Source: Escherichia coli (GTDB lineage Bacteria; Pseudomonadota; Gammaproteobacteria; Enterobacterales; Enterobacteriaceae). Taken from it: 5,879 nucleotides of DNA. Both the position numbers and the translations under genes were made by a program. The notes under the pieces were generated by a model, which searched no databases, was not told the DNA's origin, and saw only the letters and a list, made by a program, of their open reading frames with translations. Positions 1 through 5,849 of this stretch are shown piece after piece (within the stretch, counting starts at the first letter, position 1; each line of letters opens with the position of its first letter). Location of the stretch: the NCBI RefSeq assembly GCF_003334815.1, contig NZ_QOWO01000072.1; one strand, written 5' to 3'.

Positions 1-40
1 TTCGTACTAATCGCTTCAATCCAAAGAACTTCACTTTTCC

Positions 41-77
41 TTAGCGTGTGTTATCGCAGAAATGCCCACGGAACCCC
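41..77. repeat. Left copy of an imperfect 37-bp inverted repeat (partner at 5803-5839)
   Basis: Hand alignment: reverse complement of 41-77 matches plus 5803-5839 at 34/37 positions. The repeat contains the last 8 codons and TAA stop (51-53) of the 51..248 ORF. Confidence 0.7.
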
Positions 78-248
78 GGTTTGGCGTTTCCCTGCCAATA
101 TTTGATAGCCAACCCAGAGGATATAAACGCTAATACCTGCACTTAGAAGAGATAACATATCTTGGCCTAATTGACTTTGAAGTGGTTTGGTCATCTCTTC
201 GATTTTACTAACAACTTCGCTATTAAACTTTTCAAAGAAACCAGACAT
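51..248 (-). CDS. 65-aa membrane ORF resembling the N-terminal segment of VirB6/TrbL-family proteins (possibly a truncated gene)
   Basis: ATG at 248 preceded by AGGTGA, 4 nt after the stop of the upstream lipoprotein gene. MSGFF... then one hydrophobic helix (LSLLSAGISVYILWVGYQIL) followed by AGKR, the usual start of VirB6-type proteins, but it stops at TAA 51-53 where canonical proteins continue for about 250 aa. Confidence 0.4.
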   Translation of the reverse strand: MSGFFEKFNSEVVSKIEEMTKPLQSQLGQDMLSLLSAGISVYILWVGYQILAGKRQTGVPWAFLR

Positions 249-252
249 GTTA

Positions 253-516
253 TCACCTGTTCAATCCATGTTGCTTATCATATTCAGCTGACTCAGCCTT
301 AAGTATTTCAAGCATAGGCCCATAGGTTCTACCAATAATTCCGGCAACTTTTTTAACATTTTGACAATTAACAGAGTCTTCCCCTGACTTTTTACACTCC
401 TTATATTTCTCCGTTGCTTCTTTGGGATGATTTAGCCACCAATCTGATGATTTTGTATCTTCACCACATGCGGAAAGAATAAAAATAGATATCAAGAGTG
501 TACAAATTTTTTTCAT
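253..516 (-). CDS. Small secreted lipoprotein (87 aa); position immediately upstream of a VirB6/TrbL-like ORF suggests a TrbK/entry-exclusion-like role
   Basis: N-terminal signal peptide MKKICTLLISIFILSAC with lipobox L-S-A-C; GAGGA Shine-Dalgarno 7 nt upstream of the ATG at 516; stop TGA at 253-255. Confidence 0.6.
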   Translation of the reverse strand: MKKICTLLISIFILSACGEDTKSSDWWLNHPKEATEKYKECKKSGEDSVNCQNVKKVAGIIGRTYGPMLEILKAESAEYDKQHGLNR

Positions 517-536
517 CTTTGATTCCTCGTATGGAC

Positions 537-578
537 ATTACAATTGCTGATGCAATCAGCAATTGTAATTTTTGTCAA
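537..578 (-). promoter_or_regulatory. Perfect palindrome (15-bp arms, 3-bp spacer) plus adjacent minus-strand TTGACA; candidate operator/promoter for the lipoprotein operon
   Basis: ATTACAATTGCTGAT-gca-ATCAGCAATTGTAAT at 537-569, 21 nt upstream of the ATG at 516. Minus-strand hexamer TTGACA at 578..573 immediately upstream. No clean -10 hexamer identified. Confidence 0.4.
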
Positions 579-617
579 CTAAAAAAAACACCTATTGCAT
601 TATGCTATTTTTTGCAA

Positions 618-902
618 TTAATCCGCTTCAAATCCAAAACGAATCTCTTTTATGTTCAAAAGCAATCTCAATAAGATCATCGGTCTTAACGATGAAGCTG
701 AAGCACAACTTAATTTAGCTCTTGCATTAAATAACTGCCCCTGAACTGTTCCCGGTGTTGTATTTCTAAAATAAGCTATTTCATCAATAGTAAATCCTAT
801 GCTGTATAAAATGGTCACGCTCTTTTCCGCATCGATTAATCCTTCATCGTCGTAAAAGATTTGATGAAGTTGAGAAATGCGTATAGCATCATGCTTAGTC
901 AT
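618..902 (-). CDS. Small helix-turn-helix DNA-binding protein (sigma-70 region-4 / KorA-like HTH)
   Basis: 94-aa ORF; AGAGG Shine-Dalgarno 6 nt upstream of the ATG at 902. Segment FTIDEIAYFRNTTPGTVQGQLFNARAKL fits the T-x-G-T-V HTH pattern. Lies 76 nt downstream of repA on the same strand. Confidence 0.5.
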   Translation of the reverse strand: MTKHDAIRISQLHQIFYDDEGLIDAEKSVTILYSIGFTIDEIAYFRNTTPGTVQGQLFNARAKLSCASASSLRPMILLRLLLNIKEIRFGFEAD

Positions 903-978
903 AATAACCTCTAGCCAGGTTGTTGTGATTAGCGGTTTGTCAGAGTTGCAACCTCTGGCAAATCGCGCCGATTAAATA

Positions 979-1728
979 TCAATTTTTTATAATCTTTGAT
1001 TGCTCATCTTTTTGAAACCAGAATTCAAGACGAACGACTTTTTTGCCTCTTTTTAATGGCTTCCACTGGATTATCCAATTATCTTTTTCGGTCAACTCTT
1101 TTACGGCAGGTTCTATCACCCTTTCTCTGAGTAATCCAAAGGTTTTTTTATAACTTTCAGGAGATTCCATTGCGTGATGAAAATCATCCAGCGATATAGA
1201 TAACCATCCGTTATTGTCTTTGTGGGTATTCATTTGCTCGAATAATTCAAGCAACCGCCATGAGTGAACAGAGCGCAGTCCGCAAGCCTGAGATAGCTGG
1301 TATTTAGTGAAATTTTCTTCCAGTTCGCATAGATAGGGGGTGACCTGTGGTGTGAAGCTCAAAACAACGTGCGCTTCACCTTCATTGTATTTATAAGCAC
1401 CTAACCATCTGATTTTCCAGACATCAACATCTGTTTCGCTTACTTCGTTTATTCTGAAGCTAATGTAGCGGTTAAAAAAATTGTCAGCAGCGATTTTTAA
1501 TTGTGAATACGCTTGTTTTAAAGGCATTCCAAATGTATTGGCGTATTCTTCAGCCGTGATTTTAATCGGGGTGTACTGTCCGCCCATTTTGGCTATTGCA
1601 GCAAAAATGATGCGTTTTTCAGCCAGTGACAGGCTTTGCGCTGCTCTCGTAATGGCATTGCTCATCACGATATTTTTCCCGCGCAGGTTCAAGGTCATGG
1701 TAATGGATTCAGTTTTTTTCCCTTTCAT
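979..1728 (-). CDS. repA: Rep_3-family iteron-binding replication initiator RepA
   Basis: Architecture matches pSC101/R6K-type initiators as remembered: NAITRAAQSLSLAEKRIIFAAIA (winged-helix 1), WKIRWLGAYKY...PYLCEL, SISLDDFHHAM...LEFWF. Preferred start is ATG 1728 (MKGKK, preceded by AGGCGGAGAG); the track ORF extends to 1782 and internal ATGs at 1698 and 1665 are alternatives. Stop TGA 979-981. Cognate iterons lie 130 bp upstream. Confidence 0.85.
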   Translation of the reverse strand: MKGKKTESITMTLNLRGKNIVMSNAITRAAQSLSLAEKRIIFAAIAKMGGQYTPIKITAEEYANTFGMPLKQAYSQLKIAADNFFNRYISFRINEVSETDVDVWKIRWLGAYKYNEGEAHVVLSFTPQVTPYLCELEENFTKYQLSQACGLRSVHSWRLLELFEQMNTHKDNNGWLSISLDDFHHAMESPESYKKTFGLLRERVIEPAVKELTEKDNWIIQWKPLKRGKKVVRLEFWFQKDEQSKIIKN

Positions 1729-1761
1729 CTCTCCGCCTAAATAGGTCAACTGGCACTTGGA

Positions 1762-1845
1762 AAAGTAACAGGTATCGGGCAACTGTAACGAAGATAAACG
1801 ATGTTATCGCACAAGTAAAGTAACATTGCTTGTTGCTGTTACTTT
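1762..1845 (-). promoter_or_regulatory. repA promoter/operator region with inverted iteron half-sites (candidate autoregulatory operator)
   Basis: Iteron core GTTACTTT occurs as AAAGTAAC at 1762-1769 and 1817-1824 and as GTTACTTT at 1838-1845. The pair 1817-1824 / 1838-1845 forms an inverted repeat with 13-bp spacer between the iterons and the repA start. Confidence 0.45.
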
Positions 1846-1849
1846 TGCC

Positions 1850-1858
1850 TGTGGATAT
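1850..1858. promoter_or_regulatory. DnaA box-like site (8/9 match)
   Basis: TGTGGATAT, reverse complement ATATCCACA versus consensus TTATCCACA; directly abuts the iteron array. Confidence 0.35.
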
Positions 1859-1860
1859 TG

Positions 1861-1944
1861 CCCGAAAAAAGTTACTTTTAACCCGAAAAAAGTTACTTTT
1901 AACCCGAAAAAAGTTACTTTTAACCCGAAAAAAGTTACTTTTAA
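1861..1944. repeat. Four tandem perfect 21-bp iterons (CCCGAAAAAAGTTACTTTTAA)
   Basis: Unit starts at 1861, 1882, 1903 and 1924; all four copies identical, contiguous, no spacers; located upstream of a Rep_3 initiator gene. Confidence 0.9.
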
Positions 1945-2040
1945 CGCTGTAACTTGATGATTCAAAAGAATTTCTAGCGACTAAAAAGGTTTTAAAAAAA
2001 AAGATAAAAAGGATTTAAAAAGGAATTTACCCCCAAAATC
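1945..2040. other. AT-rich, A-tract-phased region of the origin (candidate DNA unwinding/bending element)
   Basis: Strongly AT-rich by inspection; AAAAAGG recurs at 1983-1989, 2006-2012 and 2017-2023; flanked by iterons on one side and a perfect DnaA box on the other. Confidence 0.4.
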
Positions 2041-2049
2041 TGTGGATAA
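2041..2049. promoter_or_regulatory. DnaA box (perfect 9-mer)
   Basis: TGTGGATAA is the reverse complement of TTATCCACA; sits at the edge of the AT-rich origin region. Confidence 0.5.
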
Positions 2050-2156
2050 CTCTGCTTAAACCAAGAGGACAGATCACGTTACGTTAAGACAACAAACCTA
2101 ATAAACGACGCGCTCATTTTTTAACCGCTACGCGTAAGTGCTCAAATCAATACCTG

Positions 2157-2222
2157 CTCTCTTCCGCTTCCTCGCCCACTCGCTCACTAACGTTCGGTCG
2201 CTGGGGCTGCGGCGAGCGGTGC
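2157..2222. other. Segment resembling the ColE1/pBR322 primosome assembly (n'-type pas/ssi) region
   Basis: CTCTTCCGCTTCCTCGCCCACTCGCTCACTAACGTTCGGTCGCTGGGGCTGCGGCGAGCGGT is recognisably similar, from memory, to the pBR322 stretch CTCTTCCGCTTCCTCGCTCACTGACTCGCTGCGCTCGGTCGTTCGGCTGCGGCGAGCGGT. Lies about 110 bp from the oriV DnaA box in a GC-rich ORF-poor island. Confidence 0.3.
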
Positions 2223-2589
2223 CACCTCCCGCATGTTGTCGGTTATTCCGTTGCTGTACTGTTCGGAAATTCGTTCTGTGAGCCATCCAGAACACCAGAA
2301 CTCGATTTTCTGGTCCCGGTAATGGTATCCCACGTCTTAGCCCTTAAAACGCGCTCAGAAACTCTCTGAGGCGCTAAAATGCCAACAGATGCCCGTCAGG
2401 GCATGGAAGGTGCGAAAAACGCTTACAGAGGGTTTCAGGAGGCCAAGCGCGCCGATACCCCTAACCAGGGGCTTTCAGGTCGCTAAGAACCGCGTCAGCC
2501 CCCTGCAAAGCAAAAATTGCACGAAACAGGCAGCCACTCGGTTGGCAGGTGGTCGTAGACCGTCGATGTTGCAGCGATGATTGTATTAA

Positions 2590-2934
2590 TCATCTAATGC
2601 TATGGTTGGTGACTTCTTTTTCCAGAGCCTTATTAACAAAAGCATTCAACGATAAATCTTCTTCCATCGCCATTTCTGCTACCCGACGATGCAGTTCTGG
2701 ATCAAGCCTGACGTTAAACACGCCTTTAAACGGGATATCAGGTTCCTTTCCATCCTCCACACAAGACTGTAAATACAGATCAACCGATGTTTTAAACTCC
2801 TGTTCCAGTTCAGCTAATGTAGAAGCCTCATAAGTTACCAGGTCCCGAATAAACGCCAGTTTTCCATACAGGACATTATTTTCAAAATCGGGTTCAACTG
2901 TACCTAAATATCCTTTATATTTTAAATGTTTCAT
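2590..2934 (-). CDS. hicB: HicB-family antitoxin (N-terminal HicB fold plus C-terminal ribbon-helix-helix DNA-binding domain)
   Basis: 114 aa; C-terminal FNVRLDPELHRRVAEMAMEEDLSLNAFVNKALEKEV is a typical RHH segment of HicB antitoxins. Start ATG 2934 overlaps the hicA stop (ATGA at 2931-2934); stop TGA 2590-2592. Confidence 0.8.
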   Translation of the reverse strand: MKHLKYKGYLGTVEPDFENNVLYGKLAFIRDLVTYEASTLAELEQEFKTSVDLYLQSCVEDGKEPDIPFKGVFNVRLDPELHRRVAEMAMEEDLSLNAFVNKALEKEVTNHSIR

Positions 2935-3179
2935 AATAATCCGGCCTCTTTCAGATTCTGTTTAATCGCTTTCAGCGTACCACCTTTAATATAACTTTCC
3001 GGATGTGGGCGATGCATTAATATGGTGTGGTTGATATCAGCATTGAAAAACCGCACTCTTGACCCCTGCATTTCTTTTTTGACATATCCCAAAGAGGAAA
3101 ACAAAACGACCAGTTCATCCCATTCAAACGTTTTTTTGCTGTTTAAAAACTTCGCCAGTAGTTTATCTGTTTTTCCCAT
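2931..3179 (-). CDS. hicA: HicA-family toxin (mRNA interferase)
   Basis: 82 aa; GSRVRFFNADINHTILMHRPHPESYIKGGTLKAIKQNLKEAGLL resembles the E. coli HicA core (GSNH...PRHP...LRKAILKQLGL, remembered). GGGGAG Shine-Dalgarno 3 nt upstream of the ATG at 3179; toxin-first order typical of hicAB. Confidence 0.75.
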   Translation of the reverse strand: MGKTDKLLAKFLNSKKTFEWDELVVLFSSLGYVKKEMQGSRVRFFNADINHTILMHRPHPESYIKGGTLKAIKQNLKEAGLL

Positions 3180-3193
3180 ACGCTCCCCTTGTT

Positions 3194-3229
3194 TGTAACT
3201 AATTATAGTTACAGTGTTGTTTTTGTCAA
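3194..3229 (-). promoter_or_regulatory. Consensus sigma70 promoter for hicAB with overlapping palindromic operator
   Basis: Minus strand: -35 TTGACA (3229..3224), 16-bp spacer, -10 TATAAT (3207..3202), about 23 nt upstream of the hicA ATG. Palindrome TGTAACT-aattat-AGTTACA (3194-3213) overlaps the -10. Confidence 0.55.
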
Positions 3230-3320
3230 ACGTGCCCTCAATGGAACATTTGAGCAGAAACTAAAGCTTGGAGACTCCCAAAATTAGAGAGGAATTACTT
3301 AAAGGCTGCAAAGAACCAAT

Positions 3321-3368
3321 GCAGGATAGACAATCCGATGTCAAATGGTACCATTCGATATCGGATTG
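3321..3368 (-). other. Candidate oriT: near-perfect 38-bp palindrome followed on the minus strand by a TATCCTG|C nick-like motif
   Basis: CAATCCGAT-gtca-AATGGTACCATT-cgat-ATCGGATTG at 3331-3368. On the minus strand the motif TATCCTGC (3328..3321) follows 2 nt after the repeat and fits the MOB_P-type nick consensus YATCCTG|Y. Lies in the divergent intergenic region next to a MobC-like gene. Confidence 0.35.
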
Positions 3369-3419
3369 TCCAAAAACAGGGTTTTTGCCTGTGCCTGCCG
3401 CAGGCTCTATGGAGTGAAG

Positions 3420-3923
3420 ATGAAACAGATAAAATTCAGACTTAGTGGTGATGAGTTAAAACTTGCAGAACATAACGCGATTTCAAGTGGATTTTCCAGT
3501 ATCAATACATTTGCCAGACATAATGTGCTTAACATTGAAACTAAGCCTGTTAATATCCCAGTTAATAATGAACCAGCAAAGCTGGTATCAGTGCGCCTTT
3601 ACCCTCATGAAATAGAACTTGTTAAACGTAATGCTGCCCTTCACGGCATGAGCATGAGCAGAGAAATTGCTATTCGTGTGCGTCAGTCTTTGTTAAAGAA
3701 TGAAGTCTGTCTTTACCCTGATGAAGTTAAGGAACTTAAAAAACTATCAACTGCTGTAGATCGTGTTGGTCGCAACATTCATTTTATCATAAAAGGTGAA
3801 AGATTCTGCACGGTTAACGATCCAGATTTCAGAAAAGACGTTATTGAAGTGATTGAACTGTGTAAGCAAATTGATTCAAAACTTGAAACGTTAACCAAGA
3901 GTGTTGTTAACAGATTTGGTTAA
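3420..3923 (+). CDS. MobC-like relaxosome accessory protein (tandem ribbon-helix-helix segments)
   Basis: 167 aa from ATG 3420, with GGAG 7 nt upstream; the track ORF start at 3345 lies inside the palindrome and is rejected. Two RHH-like segments (IKFRLSGDELKLAEHNAISSGF; KLVSVRLYPHEIELVKRNAALHGMSMSREIAIRV) and C-terminal LKKLSTAVDRVGRNIHFIIKG resembling the MobC L..L...R.G.N motif. Stop TAA 3921-3923. Confidence 0.45.
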   Translation: MKQIKFRLSGDELKLAEHNAISSGFSSINTFARHNVLNIETKPVNIPVNNEPAKLVSVRLYPHEIELVKRNAALHGMSMSREIAIRVRQSLLKNEVCLYPDEVKELKKLSTAVDRVGRNIHFIIKGERFCTVNDPDFRKDVIEVIELCKQIDSKLETLTKSVVNRFG

Positions 3924-3929
3924 AATCAA

Positions 3930-3948
3930 GGCCATCAAATAGATGGCC
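3930..3948 (-). terminator. Hairpin between convergent genes; likely intrinsic terminator for the minus-strand VirB5-like operon
   Basis: GGCCATC-aaata-GATGGCC (7-bp stem, 5-nt loop). On the minus strand it is followed by TTGATTTTA (U-rich); on the plus strand the downstream tract is not U-rich. Confidence 0.4.
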
Positions 3949-3955
3949 CTAGCTG

Positions 3956-4258
3956 TTATCTCATCGTAAATCGCATTACGATTAATAACAGAAGTAAAAT
4001 ACAAAACAGCTTCAACGTAAAAAGGAGTCTTTCTTTTATACCACCGCTGGGAACAAACCTCTTTTCAATTCTATCAGTGATAAATTGCAATGTGCCATAA
4101 TACATAAAAGCATTAACCAGCTTTAACGTAAGCTCCATACTTAAAACAATAACTATTATTGGTAGAGATATTAACAGTGGCGGCGGTGTAGAACCGGTAC
4201 TATTCAATCTAGACCAATGATTATCTACCCATTCTTTTAGCTTATTTAGCTTTATCAT
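3956..4258 (-). CDS. Small integral membrane protein (100 aa, two hydrophobic helices); entry-exclusion-like by position after the VirB5-like gene
   Basis: ATG at 4258 lies 1 nt after the VirB5-like stop (TGAtATG); the track ORF's longer N-terminus overlaps the upstream gene. Hydrophobic stretches PLLISLPIIVIVLSMELTL and LLFTLKLFCILLLLLIVMRF. No family recognised. Confidence 0.45.
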   Translation of the reverse strand: MIKLNKLKEWVDNHWSRLNSTGSTPPPLLISLPIIVIVLSMELTLKLVNAFMYYGTLQFITDRIEKRFVPSGGIKERLLFTLKLFCILLLLLIVMRFTMR

Positions 4259-4259
4259 A

Positions 4260-4973
4260 TCATTCGAAACTCGGTATTTTGGCATTTTTCTGACGTAAAC
4301 GATACTCTGCATACTTTTGTTCTTTCAACATTTCCGCATCAGCCCTGTTTTTACTATCCCATACATCATACTGCATTTTAATTGCCTGTATTTTTAACGA
4401 CTGAGCCTGTAATGCGTTAGCTAAATCCTGGGATTCCTTCATATCCTTTGAAGACTCAATTCGGCTACTTAAACTCTGAATCTGAGACATTGCACTTGAT
4501 AGCTGCTTATTTATCTCATTTCCCTGTTCAATGCTGGCGGCCGTTGAAACTATTCTGGCCTTACAAAGGTTATCAGAACTTTCAATGCCTGTATTACACA
4601 TATCAAACGCTCCATACTTACTGAACAGATTTTTAGCCTGGCTGCTTAATGCACCTTCGGGATTACTGGTAAAATCAGAAATATAACTGTTCCCCTGCTT
4701 ATAAATGTTTGCCAACTCTGATTGCAGGTTACTTAGTTCATTTGTGAATGCCGCAATATTCCTTATACCTGTTGCCGTGGCTAACTGGTCTTTATATGCC
4801 TGAATCTGACTTTGATAATGCCGCGCTGTTTCAGACCATTGTTTGAGTCGTTCTGTCCATCTTGTGGCTTCAATGGCCCATTCCGGACTGGCATCAATAG
4901 CAACCGGAATACCTGCGACAGAACCAAATGAAAATAAGCACAAAAGTACTGAAAAAATTAGTTTTTTGTTCAT
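4260..4973 (-). CDS. VirB5/TrbJ-family type IV secretion minor pilus protein
   Basis: 237 aa; signal peptide MNKKLIFSVLLCLFSFGSVAG, then GIPVAID and a Gln-rich coiled-coil stretch (QSQIQAYKDQLATATGIR) as in VirB5/TrbJ proteins. Strong GAGGAG Shine-Dalgarno; start overlaps the upstream gene's stop (ATGA at 4970-4973). Confidence 0.7.
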   Translation of the reverse strand: MNKKLIFSVLLCLFSFGSVAGIPVAIDASPEWAIEATRWTERLKQWSETARHYQSQIQAYKDQLATATGIRNIAAFTNELSNLQSELANIYKQGNSYISDFTSNPEGALSSQAKNLFSKYGAFDMCNTGIESSDNLCKARIVSTAASIEQGNEINKQLSSAMSQIQSLSSRIESSKDMKESQDLANALQAQSLKIQAIKMQYDVWDSKNRADAEMLKEQKYAEYRLRQKNAKIPSFE

Positions 4974-5710
4974 GCTGAACTCCTCGCACGTGCTTTTTCC
5001 AGGGATGCTCGTCTTCTTGCTTCCATTCCCAATGCGCCTGTTGAAGCCCGTTTCTGCTCCACTTTTTCACCTGCCCATTCGGCGGCTGTTTGCGTTCCCC
5101 GTTTCATTTGGTTTCTCGTTTTCTCTACGGCCATCCCAGCAGCCCCAATCCCTAAAAGAGCCATTCCCTGAAGAGTACCTTCGACACCTGCACCAGCAAG
5201 CTGCTGCGCGAAACTCGATGATTTCCAGACAAAGACAGCAATCAGAACTCCAATTACAAATGCCATTGCGCCCATTGTTAAAATATTTGTTGAGTTAGCA
5301 TCTCTCGATATCTGACTAAGCATATCAGTTTGAAACTCAGTACCAATTTTGACGAGAACTCCTGCAAAAATAACAGTAAATACACTAGAAAATAATATAC
5401 CAAGCCAGTTATTAAACATTACTCTGGTGAATCCAAACATATGACAACCGATAAATATCGGAGCTACAAGAATAGCTAACTGCATTGTTACATCGGCAAG
5501 CATGTAAATAACAGCCGCTACAGACATAATCAGGATGCTTCCTCCCCAAACCAACATTGAACCGATCCCACCCTCAACTGACACATATTTGGATTGATCC
5601 ATAGCATAAACTTTGTCTGCCAAAAGCTGAGTTGTACTCCACATGGTATCTAGCGTTGCCCATACAGGTTTACCAAGGAACCCATCCTTCATAGATTTAA
5701 TAGCATCCAT
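4970..5710 (-). CDS. VirB6/TrbL-family polytopic inner-membrane protein, lacking the canonical N-terminal segment (possibly N-terminally truncated)
   Basis: 246 aa with 4-5 hydrophobic helices and a charged C-terminal tail. APIFIGCHMFGFTRVMFNNWLGILF matches the conserved VirB6 P-x-F-I...TR..F..W block (remembered from Brucella/Agrobacterium VirB6). The frame is open upstream to TGA 5861-5863 with no ATG/GTG/TTG before ATG 5710, and the ribosome-binding site is weak. Confidence 0.7.
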   Translation of the reverse strand: MDAIKSMKDGFLGKPVWATLDTMWSTTQLLADKVYAMDQSKYVSVEGGIGSMLVWGGSILIMSVAAVIYMLADVTMQLAILVAPIFIGCHMFGFTRVMFNNWLGILFSSVFTVIFAGVLVKIGTEFQTDMLSQISRDANSTNILTMGAMAFVIGVLIAVFVWKSSSFAQQLAGAGVEGTLQGMALLGIGAAGMAVEKTRNQMKRGTQTAAEWAGEKVEQKRASTGALGMEARRRASLEKARARSSA

Positions 5711-5802
5711 TGCTGCCGTCAGATAGCCATCAGCATTGCTTACGAATGTTAAAATAATGGCAAATTTTGATAGGTCCCAAACGAGATCTTGTAATGGGGT
5801 TT

Positions 5803-5839
5803 GGGGCTCCGTGGGAATTTCTGCGATAACACCCGCTAA
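5803..5839. repeat. Right copy of the imperfect 37-bp inverted repeat (partner at 41-77); an inverted, degenerate copy of the 3' end of the 51..248 ORF
   Basis: Plus 5758-5829 translates to WQILIGPKRDLVMGFGAPWEFLR-stop, versus YQILAGKRQTGVPWAFLR-stop at the C-terminus of the 51..248 ORF (encoded on the opposite strand). Nucleotide identity is 34/37 in the core. Confidence 0.7.
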
Positions 5840-5849
5840 GCGATTTCTC

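Follow-up and report, generated by a model that had tools for sequence, protein, structure and literature searches.

The closest described relative of the locus analysed here is the pilX operon of IncX4 plasmids of the pHNSHP23 type, in which PixR is accompanied by cds9/eex, pilX1-6, cds8, pilX7-11, taxB and trbM (PMC8725589). This operon is activated by PixR and begins at the eex homologue—eex heads the operon in IncX4 and IncX7 alike—and holds, between pilX6 and pilX7, the uncharacterised gene cds8; the 18 genes that the same study found to be required for transfer do not include cds8 (PMC8725589). PixR-like genes occur on small plasmids as well (PMC8725589); beyond that one sentence, we found no description in the literature of the cassette discussed below. 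Exclusion systems are the second point of reference: where the donor-side target of an exclusion protein is known, it is a homologue of VirB6, with a recipient protein recognising a VirB6-type protein of the donor in the pairs TraS/TraG of F, Eex/TraG of SXT, and YddJ/ConG of ICEBs1, and R27 (EexA/EexB) and pKPC_UVA01 require more than one protein, or presence in the donor too (review, PMC12282955).

The window—by which we mean the whole stretch of Escherichia coli DNA that was analysed, 5,879 nt in length—represents a complete 5.72-kb plasmid related to IncX4. The plasmid carries ddp1/taxA with an IncX4-like palindrome upstream, ddp1 being 90-95% identical to that of IncX4 and taxA with its upstream region sharing 93% nucleotide identity; a relaxase and a coupling protein were not found on it. 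Dependence on the relaxase and type IV secretion system (T4SS) of a helper is known from small plasmids equipped with no more than an oriT and/or a relaxase accessory protein, such as those of the pCERC7 group, which have NikA alone. The window plasmid is like these in having ddp1/taxA and no relaxase, and in being found together with, and in one natural cointegrate fused to, an IncX4 plasmid; unlike it, NikA-only plasmids of the pCERC7 group carry, to our knowledge, no VirB6, VirB5, Eex, or transfer activator. Strains ETEC6335, Ec-050-T20-ESBL, and strain 10 contain both the small plasmid and IncX4. A co-residence test that covered 60 of 228 records suggests enrichment, 3 of 25 carriers turning up in this 26% sample against about 0.3 expected. 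In our reading, the 5.72-kb plasmid is a non-conjugative satellite of IncX4-type conjugative plasmids, and its mobilisation by IncX4 is putative.

The features of the window that enter the comparison are given here in operon order, with position 1 as the first letter of the window.

618-902, minus strand: PixR-like regulator gene, LuxR C-terminal type; 44% identical in amino acids to the regulator that stands in the pixR place of IncX4
537-578, minus strand: candidate promoter/operator, TTGACA (578-573) and a perfect 15+15-nt palindrome (537-569)
253-516, minus strand: EexN-family entry-exclusion lipoprotein gene, first cistron; lipobox LSAC; NF033894
78-248, minus strand: 5' part of the VirB6 gene (57 codons), ending at the insertion point
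40-77, no strand assigned: 38-bp terminal inverted repeat of a Tn3-type element, partner at 5803-5840
5803-5840, no strand assigned: the other terminal inverted repeat of this element (38 bp), partner of 40-77
4970-5802, minus strand: distal 833 nt of the VirB6/TrbL gene, severed from the 5' part by the transposon
4260-4973, minus strand: VirB5-like gene, 237 aa, signal peptide; PF07996, E 1.9e-27, residues 21-219
4256-4262, minus strand: stop-start junction TGAtATG of the VirB5-like gene and the small gene; no strong Shine-Dalgarno sequence
3956-4258, minus strand: gene of a small, predicted inner-membrane protein, 100 aa, last cistron; called from purifying selection, family, hydropathy, and an AlphaFold2 model
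3927-3951, minus strand: probable Rho-independent terminator hairpin; called from fold energy, uniqueness in the window, and conservation
3915-3926, minus strand: interrupted U-rich tail (UUGAUUUUAACC from the 7-bp core), covering the last codons of the convergent ddp1
3420-3923, plus strand: convergent ddp1/taxA, relaxosome accessory protein; NF041451, 231 bits; stop 6 nt from the hairpin core

Behind the PixR-like regulator the genes thus follow in the order eex-virB6-virB5-small gene, and the hairpin comes after them. A preliminary description of this DNA had spoken of a VirB5-like operon; the VirB5-like gene does belong to the unit, but the name is too narrow for what is an eex-virB6-virB5-small gene operon behind its regulator. 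The EexN gene scores 69 bits with NF033894 against a cut-off of 33, and an intact 999-nt copy of the VirB6 gene (NZ_CP122591.1, 332 aa) matches PF04610 with an E of 1.4e-40. The VirB5-like protein reaches 44 bits with TIGR02791, below the cut-off of 132; it has 82-84% amino acid identity to IncX4 PilX5, with 90.5% nucleotide identity over 4326-4917. The region upstream of eex was read in eight other small-plasmid modules, and seven of them have a palindrome in the matching position, with a different sequence in modules that have a divergent regulator; in L010 none was found.

The likeness to the IncX4 pilX operon lies in the same type of regulator, in eex as the first gene, and in homologous VirB6 (50%) and VirB5 proteins. 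There are also differences: IncX4 has virB1-virB4 and virB7-virB11, whereas the window operon lacks them; virB5 lies behind virB6 in the window and before it in IncX4; and the window operon ends in a hairpin right after the small gene, while that of IncX4 reads on. The earlier statement that virB7-virB11 equivalents are missing downstream holds for the complete 5.72-kb plasmid, which has no further T4SS genes.

The virB6 gene of the window copy is split by a Tn3-type insertion, a point missed in the preliminary description. A 5-bp target duplication, GGTTT, stands at 78-82 and 5798-5802, and the junction arithmetic closes exactly (171 + 833 = 999 + 5). The 77-nt transposon end matches large E. 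coli plasmids; at those matches the gene table contains no transposase. Because virB6 is split, it is doubtful that the native promoter still drives the distal genes here, and the cassette may be inactive in this copy.

We read the locus as a PixR-like regulator gene upstream of what would be a shortened IncX4/IncX7-type pilX operon on a satellite plasmid. A four-cistron transcript, eex-virB6-virB5-small gene, would end at an intrinsic terminator at 3927-3951 with its U-rich tail, and the 100-aa inner-membrane protein, translated through coupling to the preceding cistron, would act as an accessory to VirB6—as partner, stabiliser, or modulator. Taken as a whole, with the hairpin as operon terminator and the small protein as a VirB6-associated accessory membrane protein, not an exclusion protein, we give this reading a probability of about 0.6.

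The small gene begins one nucleotide past the VirB5-like stop, as had been noted earlier: on the minus strand, TGA (4262-4260) is followed by a single T (4259) and then by ATG (4258-4256), and the 100-codon frame closes with TAA at 3958-3956. The gene is presumably translationally coupled to the preceding cistron. A 118-codon reading from an ATG at 4312 was dropped—the added codons would run within VirB5 in a different frame, the Yersinia pestis plasmid pYC lacks them, and all family members align from the Met at 4258. Compared with pYC, the small gene has a pN of 0.20 and a pS of 0.75, similar to the other cistrons (VirB5, 0.16/0.79; eex, 0.12/0.55), and compared with the related locus L002 its omega is 0.2; by these substitution patterns, the small ORF is a genuine gene under strong purifying selection. 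RefSeq annotation mostly omits it.

The two hydrophobic helices described earlier are evident as hydropathy maxima of 2.22 near residue ~36 and 2.54 near residue ~86 (19-residue windows), and an N-terminal amphipathic helix accompanies them. An AlphaFold2 model places helices at 2-20, 28-68, and 74-99, with a mean pLDDT of only 69.7, which is low confidence; the protein presumably sits in the inner membrane. The conserved core of the family is roughly YYGTLQFI-D-IEK-VP(N/S)G-SERLL-LKLFCILL. The failure of the preliminary description to recognise any similarity was borne out, as profile searches of Pfam, NCBIfam, PADLOC, and PHROGs gave no match for the small protein or its relatives; in Pfam this applies to the small protein and each of 21 family members at E <= 0.001. 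The protein shows no sign of being VirB2, VirB3, or VirB7, there being no match to PF04956 (TrbC/VirB2) or PF05101 (VirB3) and no lipobox: its N-terminus, MIKLNKLKEWVDNHWSRLNSTGST, is polar, and its only Cys is residue 86, in the second hydrophobic helix.

The family is small and keeps to one setting. A profile search of 1.84 billion representative proteins returned only 7 matches, one of 5.8 billion proteins only 24 clusters, all from the same kind of cassette, and when 72,556 plasmids were searched by tblastn with the small protein, only 22 gave matches, all of them small. The cassette is present on at least five replicon types, and throughout it the small gene is the final gene with a hairpin always next. 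In most relatives the small gene lies directly behind VirB6, whereas in the window it lies behind VirB5; forms of 59-94 aa follow TrbL/VirB6 directly on RepL, Rep_3, and Rep_1 plasmids, and forms of 99-100 aa are placed behind VirB5. The start of the small gene overlaps the preceding stop in relatives (ATGA or TAATG), and in L007, L010, L013, L015, and L016 the stop overlapped is that of VirB6. Short forms lack the first hydrophobic helix, and some members have in-frame deletions or frameshifts. One of the nearest relatives is the Yersinia pestis cryptic plasmid pYC (NC_002144.1), whose small protein, WP_010891418.1, is annotated as hypothetical and is 69% identical to that of the window. Its order is shared—regulator(s), EexN, VirB6, VirB5, small gene, hairpin, and a convergent ddp1-like gene—while its replicon, toxin-antitoxin system, and hairpin sequence differ; VirB6 and ddp1 appear frameshifted in pYC.

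A probable remote homologue is found within the IncX4 operon itself. There, a small hydrophobic ORF (L005, 8808-8987) overlaps the pilX6 stop, and it was the sole match of the family profile among 638 six-frame ORFs (19 bits, E 4.8e-5; the next had 0.55). The hhalign probability for the family against this ORF is 84%, and a bridging member, P0014, aligns with it by BLASTP at 39% identity over 36 aa (E 2e-6). The resemblance is remote, with 59 aa in the IncX4 ORF against 100 aa in the window, and the start over the VirB6 stop that marks the IncX4 ORF is not seen in the window, where the small gene lies behind VirB5. The two variants of the IncX4 ORF are too alike to reveal selection. The ORF probably lies in the interval called cds8 in pHNSHP23; if cds8 is this very ORF, its absence from the 18 genes required for IncX4 transfer would count against the accessory reading.

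From its position as the last gene of the cassettes, mostly behind VirB6, and from the probable homologue behind pilX6, we infer that the small protein is a VirB6-associated accessory protein; the tie to VirB6 would be physical or functional. With the family profile, no homologue was found in IncX1, in IncX3, or in an IncY-linked T4SS locus, and the protein is therefore not a general VirB6 partner.

A different role had been proposed for the small gene, which was said to occupy the slot of entry-exclusion genes. Under this alternative, the protein would be an entry- or surface-exclusion factor, or half of a two-part system, acting in the recipient membrane against the T4SS. The constant company of an Eex lipoprotein and a VirB6 would fit such a role for a small inner-membrane protein, given that VirB6 homologues are known exclusion targets and that multi-protein exclusion systems are known (PMC12282955). 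The cassette also resembles pairs of the TraS/TraG type, in that its exclusion gene and its VirB6 gene are inherited as a unit on different replicons; the small protein, on the other hand, has no detectable similarity to TraS or other Eex proteins. The exclusion slot is unsupported because the operon already begins with a bona fide gene for an EexN lipoprotein, and the small protein has neither a lipobox nor a match to the NCBIfam EexN family (NF033894). Nor does position favour it: the relatives and the probable IncX4 homologue lie directly behind VirB6, not in the slot between virB5 and virB6 that is the eex site in IncX1 and IncX3. We therefore regard an exclusion function of the small protein as unlikely.

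Less probable still is a function unrelated to the T4SS, with the last place in the operon taken by a membrane-active factor for maintenance or toxicity, or by a protein with some other selfish function. In favour of this, the protein is of no known family, is short, and has a very hydrophobic composition, and one member (L014) is solitary on a 28.7-kb contig with neither VirB6 nor VirB5 as a neighbour. Such a function is hard to square with the tight synteny and overlapping starts with VirB6/VirB5 in at least five replicon types, or with the probable homologue inside the IncX4 transfer operon, and neither a partner antitoxin gene nor an antisense RNA family was detected.

The hairpin GGCCATC-aaata-GATGGCC, reported earlier directly behind the 100-aa membrane protein gene, is present at 3930-3948 as a perfect 7-bp stem with 5 GC pairs and a 5-nt loop, and its core begins 7 nt past the TAA of the small gene. 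As minus-strand RNA, the stem grows to 10 pairs (3927-3951), including two G-U pairs, and the extended hairpin folds at -16.2 kcal/mol (z = -3.95), with 0 of 200 shuffles folding equally well. The core is the sole perfect hairpin of its class in the window (a perfect stem of 7 bp or more with 4 or more GC pairs, loop of 3-8), where dinucleotide shuffles give an expectation of 0.39 per window; it sits within the 32-nt gap (3924-3955) that separates ddp1 from the convergent small gene, where by our own arithmetic only about 0.002 such hairpins would be expected by chance. The tract that follows on the minus strand is U-rich, as had been claimed (UUGAUUUUAA after the 7-bp core, with 6 U among the first 8), but it is interrupted, and past the extended stem only AUUUUAA is left. 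Because of this interruption the site is absent from the output of a consensus terminator scan; the U tails of relatives are stronger (L002, UUUUCUAUUCU; pYC, UUUUUCUUUAU). Rfam reported nothing at gathering thresholds on the whole window.

Comparison adds to these properties. A strong hairpin lies within ~30 nt of the small-gene stop in 10 of 10 related small-plasmid loci, and these hairpins comprise at least four unrelated sequences; that of pYC, with its U run, is at the matching place and unrelated in sequence to the window's. In plasmids of 4237 bp the hairpin is homologous, with one C to T change in the stem that keeps a G-U pair, and with a different loop. In IncX4 the operon continues into pilX7-11, and the corresponding place has no comparable hairpin. 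The pattern favours the earlier view that the transcript ends here, and the hairpin is very probably a transcription terminator at which a conjugation operon, short and truncated, comes to its end.

It is very improbable that the ORF is the remnant of a gene in decay, with a hairpin that mainly serves ddp1 or marks a recombination joint and does not end the virB transcript. RefSeq's usual omission of the ORF, the deletions and frameshifts of several members, and the ddp1 stop 6 nt away would all fit, as would the fact that the window and the 4237-bp plasmids cease to be homologous in nucleotides at 3928, where the hairpin has its foot. Yet the ORF is under strong purifying selection, and the plus-strand sequence past the hairpin (CUAGCUGUUAUC) is not U-rich, with a weaker fold on that strand (-13.4 kcal/mol, z -2.4). 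In addition, ddp1 has been lost from the 4237-bp plasmids while the hairpin remains with a better U run, and distant cassettes have unrelated hairpins at the same place.

The reading as terminator and VirB6-associated protein can be carried one step further, though with a low probability. The cassette could be a portable T4SS interface module by which satellites manipulate IncX4/IncX7 helpers, with the small protein as a VirB6-binding subunit that is also present in IncX4. Its parts would be a PixR-like activator, an EexN lipoprotein, a divergent VirB6, an optional VirB5, and a small tail-anchored protein. In such a module, for example, the satellite's VirB6 and its small partner would be swapped in and evade the helper's exclusion protein in helper-carrying recipients, while the satellite's Eex would block redundant entry and its regulator would co-activate transfer.

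A terminator alone is ordinary; the setting gives this one its importance. IncX4 plasmids are major carriers of mcr-1, and here four or five genes out of a T4SS operon have been kept together under selection across at least five replicons, with a last gene that belongs to no described family. Should the small protein have no such part to play, an annotation fix remains, for a real gene and terminator that RefSeq mostly omits. Should the small protein and the divergent VirB6 indeed act on the helper's channel or its exclusion, they would offer a handle on the donor-side target of EexN-type exclusion, and would show satellite plasmids tuning the spread of resistance plasmids.

The window is a small enterobacterial plasmid. 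From 78 to 5802 it is 100% identical to LR792480.1, a 5718-bp plasmid of Salmonella Typhimurium, and 98.7% identical to NZ_CP122591.1, a 5720-bp plasmid of E. coli; the outermost 77 nt at both window ends are foreign to the plasmid, and the equal length of these overhangs suggests assembler k-mer overlap with a repeated element. The features discussed here are as follows.

Features of the window
40-77 and 5803-5840: Tn3-type 38-bp inverted repeats (GGGG...TAAG)
78-82 and 5798-5802: 5-bp direct duplication GGTTT (target duplication), flanking the inverted repeats
248-78 and 5802-4970, minus strand: VirB6/TrbL (PF04610, E 1.4e-40 for the intact protein)
253-516, minus strand: EexN-family lipoprotein (NF033894, 69 bits against a cut-off of 33)
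618-902, minus strand: PixR-like LuxR-C-type regulator
979-1782, minus strand: Rep_3-type initiator, with 21-bp iterons at 1861-1944
2590-3179: hicAB
3420-3923, plus strand: ddp1/taxA, convergent with the 100-codon reading frame (NF041451, 231 bits)
3930-3948: hairpin GGCCATC/GATGGCC with a 5-nt loop; ten pairs in the minus-strand RNA, 3927-3951
3956-4258, minus strand: 100-codon open reading frame, here the small gene
4260-4973, minus strand: VirB5-like protein (PF07996, E 1.9e-27)

The 38-bp repeats and the GGTTT duplication therefore indicate insertion of a Tn3-family-type element inside the VirB6 gene. This gene is intact (999 nt) in NZ_CP122591.1 and in two pieces in the window (171 + 833 = 999 + 5); the transposon is absent from both related records and probably blocks or alters downstream gene expression in the window's copy. 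Elsewhere on the plasmid, four tandem 21-bp iterons (CCCGAAAAAAGTTACTTTTAA) lie beside the Rep_3 gene at 1861-1965, and the reading frames across them (KVTFFGL repeats) are artefacts. A GC-rich segment at 2132-2580, non-coding in appearance and without an Rfam match, recurs at 83-95% identity in more than 900 plasmids, among them the 4237-bp plasmids discussed below and cryptic E. coli plasmids of 1.5 kb.

The small gene is mostly unannotated in RefSeq, yet comparative evidence indicates that it is real. It is also found in 4237-bp RepL plasmids of E. coli, Shigella, and Klebsiella (94-95% amino acid identity, omega ~0.2) and, annotated as a hypothetical protein, in the Yersinia pestis cryptic plasmid pYC (69% identity; 0.20 nonsynonymous and 0.75 synonymous differences per site, the latter saturated). 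Selection values are similar for its neighbours VirB5, eex, and VirB6, and the family as a whole shares the start at 4258; a longer 118-codon reading was rejected, its start not being conserved. AlphaFold2 predicts helices at residues 2-20, 28-68, and 74-99 with a mean pLDDT of only 69.7. Among further database copies (P0006, P0009, P0010, P0004, P0008), some have lost the first hydrophobic helix through in-frame deletions, of which at least one lies between short repeats (TLKL...TLKL), and others carry frameshifts; such copies could be real variants or assembly errors.

The preliminary description ended the VirB5-like operon at the hairpin, and the anatomy it gave is confirmed: the VirB5-like and small genes meet at TGA-t-ATG (4262-4256), the small gene stops with TAA at 3958-3956, its protein has two hydropathy peaks (2.22 and 2.54, 19-residue windows), and the hairpin is present. 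No other perfect hairpin in the window combines a stem of 7 bp or more, four or more GC pairs, and a loop of 3-8, a combination that dinucleotide shuffles yield 0.39 times per window; this one lies in the 32-nt gap between the convergent genes. The minus-strand RNA folds at -16.2 kcal/mol (z = -3.95); the plus-strand fold is weaker (-13.4 kcal/mol, z -2.4) with a tail that is not U-rich, and the hairpin is therefore oriented for the minus-strand transcript. The U tract on its 3' side is interrupted, which is why a consensus terminator scan missed it.

Comparison supports the terminator reading well. A strong hairpin lies within ~30 nt of the small-gene stop in all ten small-plasmid loci, with at least four unrelated sequences among them and a U run after most. 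The window and the 4237-bp plasmids share a homologous hairpin in which one C-to-T stem change keeps pairing (G-U) and the loop differs; their nucleotide homology ends at 3928, the hairpin foot, and the 4237-bp plasmids have lost ddp1 and kept the hairpin. Together, these comparisons make a good case for a terminator belonging to the cassette, that is, the unit of PixR-like regulator, eex, virB6, in some cases virB5, small gene, and hairpin.

The small-protein family is tiny: searches returned 10, then 24 clusters among 5.8 billion proteins, seven matches among 1.84 billion representative proteins, and no match in Pfam, NCBIfam, PADLOC, or PHROGs. The C-terminal half forms the conserved core (roughly YYGTLQFI-D-IEK-VPNGT-SERLLLILKLFCILL), and the first hydrophobic helix is missing from short forms. 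The 99-100-aa forms come after VirB5, the order seen in the window (L023, L026); more distant members (59-94 aa) come immediately after the TrbL/VirB6 gene, overlapping its stop with their start, in cassettes that run regulator, Eex, VirB6, small gene and have no VirB5. The plasmids of these distant members carry RepL (L007), Rep_3 (L010, L013), or Rep_1 (L015-L018), and the small gene is always last in the cassette. One metagenome scaffold (L008, 20,986 bp) has a gene run of virB1-virB5, eex, virB6, and the small gene that ends there; a second regulator-eex-virB6-small gene copy follows, with a Rep_3 gene that shares 93% identity with that of the window. This scaffold is possibly a cointegrate or a misassembly.

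Parts of the plasmid closely resemble IncX4. PilX5 of IncX4 plasmids (e.g. the mcr-1 plasmid pMCR_1139_A1) is 82-84% identical to the VirB5-like protein, with 90.5% DNA identity over the VirB5 core at 4326-4917, and ddp1/taxA with ~100 nt upstream is 93% identical in DNA. In contrast, VirB6 (50%), Eex (43-55%), and the regulator (40-44%) are far more distant at the protein level; thus the plasmid is a mosaic, in which VirB5 looks like a fairly recent import. Measured against pYC, eex and 5' virB6 show a synonymous divergence of ~0.55, VirB5 and the small gene one of ~0.75-0.79, which implies that a recombination joint lies within virB6, near 5101-5178. The region upstream of ddp1 (3314-3419, 93% identical to its IncX4 counterpart, 42-bp palindrome at 3329-3370 included) is kept twice in 4237-bp plasmids lacking ddp1 (L002 1649-1750 and 3012-3101), and a cis-acting site such as oriT is suggested.

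The IncX4 gene order is regulator, eex, virB1-virB5, virB6, small ORFs, virB7-11, and taxB. In the IncX4 plasmid pHNSHP23, one long operon activated by PixR starts from a promoter that lies 42 bp upstream of cds9, the eex homologue; the uncharacterised cds8, between pilX6 and pilX7, rises 13-fold with PixR and is outside the 18 genes scored essential for transfer (PMC8725589). PixR-like proteins also occur on Col and small untyped plasmids (PMC8725589). A 59-codon ORF with an ATG overlapping the stop codon of pilX6 (L005 8808-8987) is kept at 90% identity or more in ~440 IncX4 records. It was the sole match of the small-protein profile among 638 six-frame ORFs (E 4.8e-5; next best 0.55), with an hhalign probability of 84% and a BLASTP match to the bridging member P0014 (39% identity over 36 residues, E 2e-6); homology is probable, though not proven. 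No homologue was found in IncX1, IncX3, or one IncY-linked type IV secretion system. IncX4 has no strong hairpin after the 59-codon ORF, which fits a transcript that would read on past it. Between this ORF and the VirB7 lipoprotein gene, IncX4 has another small hydrophobic ORF (L005 8962-9192; 76 codons from GTG, two predicted helices), which does not match the family profile.

The operon's promoter and operator would lie at 537-578, between regulator and eex, where a TTGACA hexamer precedes a perfect 15+15-nt palindrome. A palindrome occupies the same place in seven of eight other small-plasmid modules whose eex-upstream region was read (L010 shows none), and its sequence differs in modules with a divergent regulator; it is a candidate operator co-varying with the regulator. 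It lies downstream of TTGAC(A) at the same position in L002, L004, L007, L013, L016, and L026, and most other cassettes have AACAGCACTGAATATATTCAGTGCTGTT in place of the window's palindrome, doubled in L007. A transcript from this promoter would cover eex, virB6, virB5, and the small gene and terminate at the hairpin. Coupled translation is probable for the small gene, which lacks a good Shine-Dalgarno sequence and directly adjoins the stop codon before it.

The reading of the small gene as occupant of an entry-exclusion slot is unsupported—an EexN gene lies elsewhere in the same operon, and relatives of the small gene follow VirB6. Co-inheritance with VirB6 across many replicons, overlap with the VirB6 stop in most lineages, and the probable post-pilX6 counterpart make an accessory membrane protein of VirB6 the best-supported role. 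Where the donor-side target of an exclusion protein is known, it is a VirB6 homologue (review, PMC12282955), so Eex, VirB6, and the small protein could plausibly form a module that confers specificity on exclusion or on the channel.

Of 5426 complete E. coli genomes, 25 carry the small-gene segment, plasmid-borne every time, and 228 carry IncX4 taxC. In a sample of 60 of these 228 IncX4-positive records (26%), IncX4 and the small plasmid are co-resident in at least three strains (ETEC6335, Ec-050-T20-ESBL, strain 10), against a rough chance expectation of ~0.3; because some isolates are clonal, the excess is only suggestive. In one E. coli record, an IncX4 plasmid and the 5.7-kb plasmid are naturally fused: the cointegrate pOkiPb01695_3 (NZ_AP042573.1, 38,788 bp; region 27688-34897) has duplicated ddp1/taxA-hicAB segments at the joints and a 100% identical, likewise unannotated small gene. 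The plasmid carries ddp1/taxA and IncX4-like upstream DNA without a relaxase; most simply, it would be a satellite that IncX4 moves, either in trans or through cointegration. What was found is an ordinary terminator together with a real, uncharacterised accessory gene, and its context—a conserved, truncated type IV secretion cassette on putative IncX4 satellite plasmids—is of greater interest than the hairpin itself.
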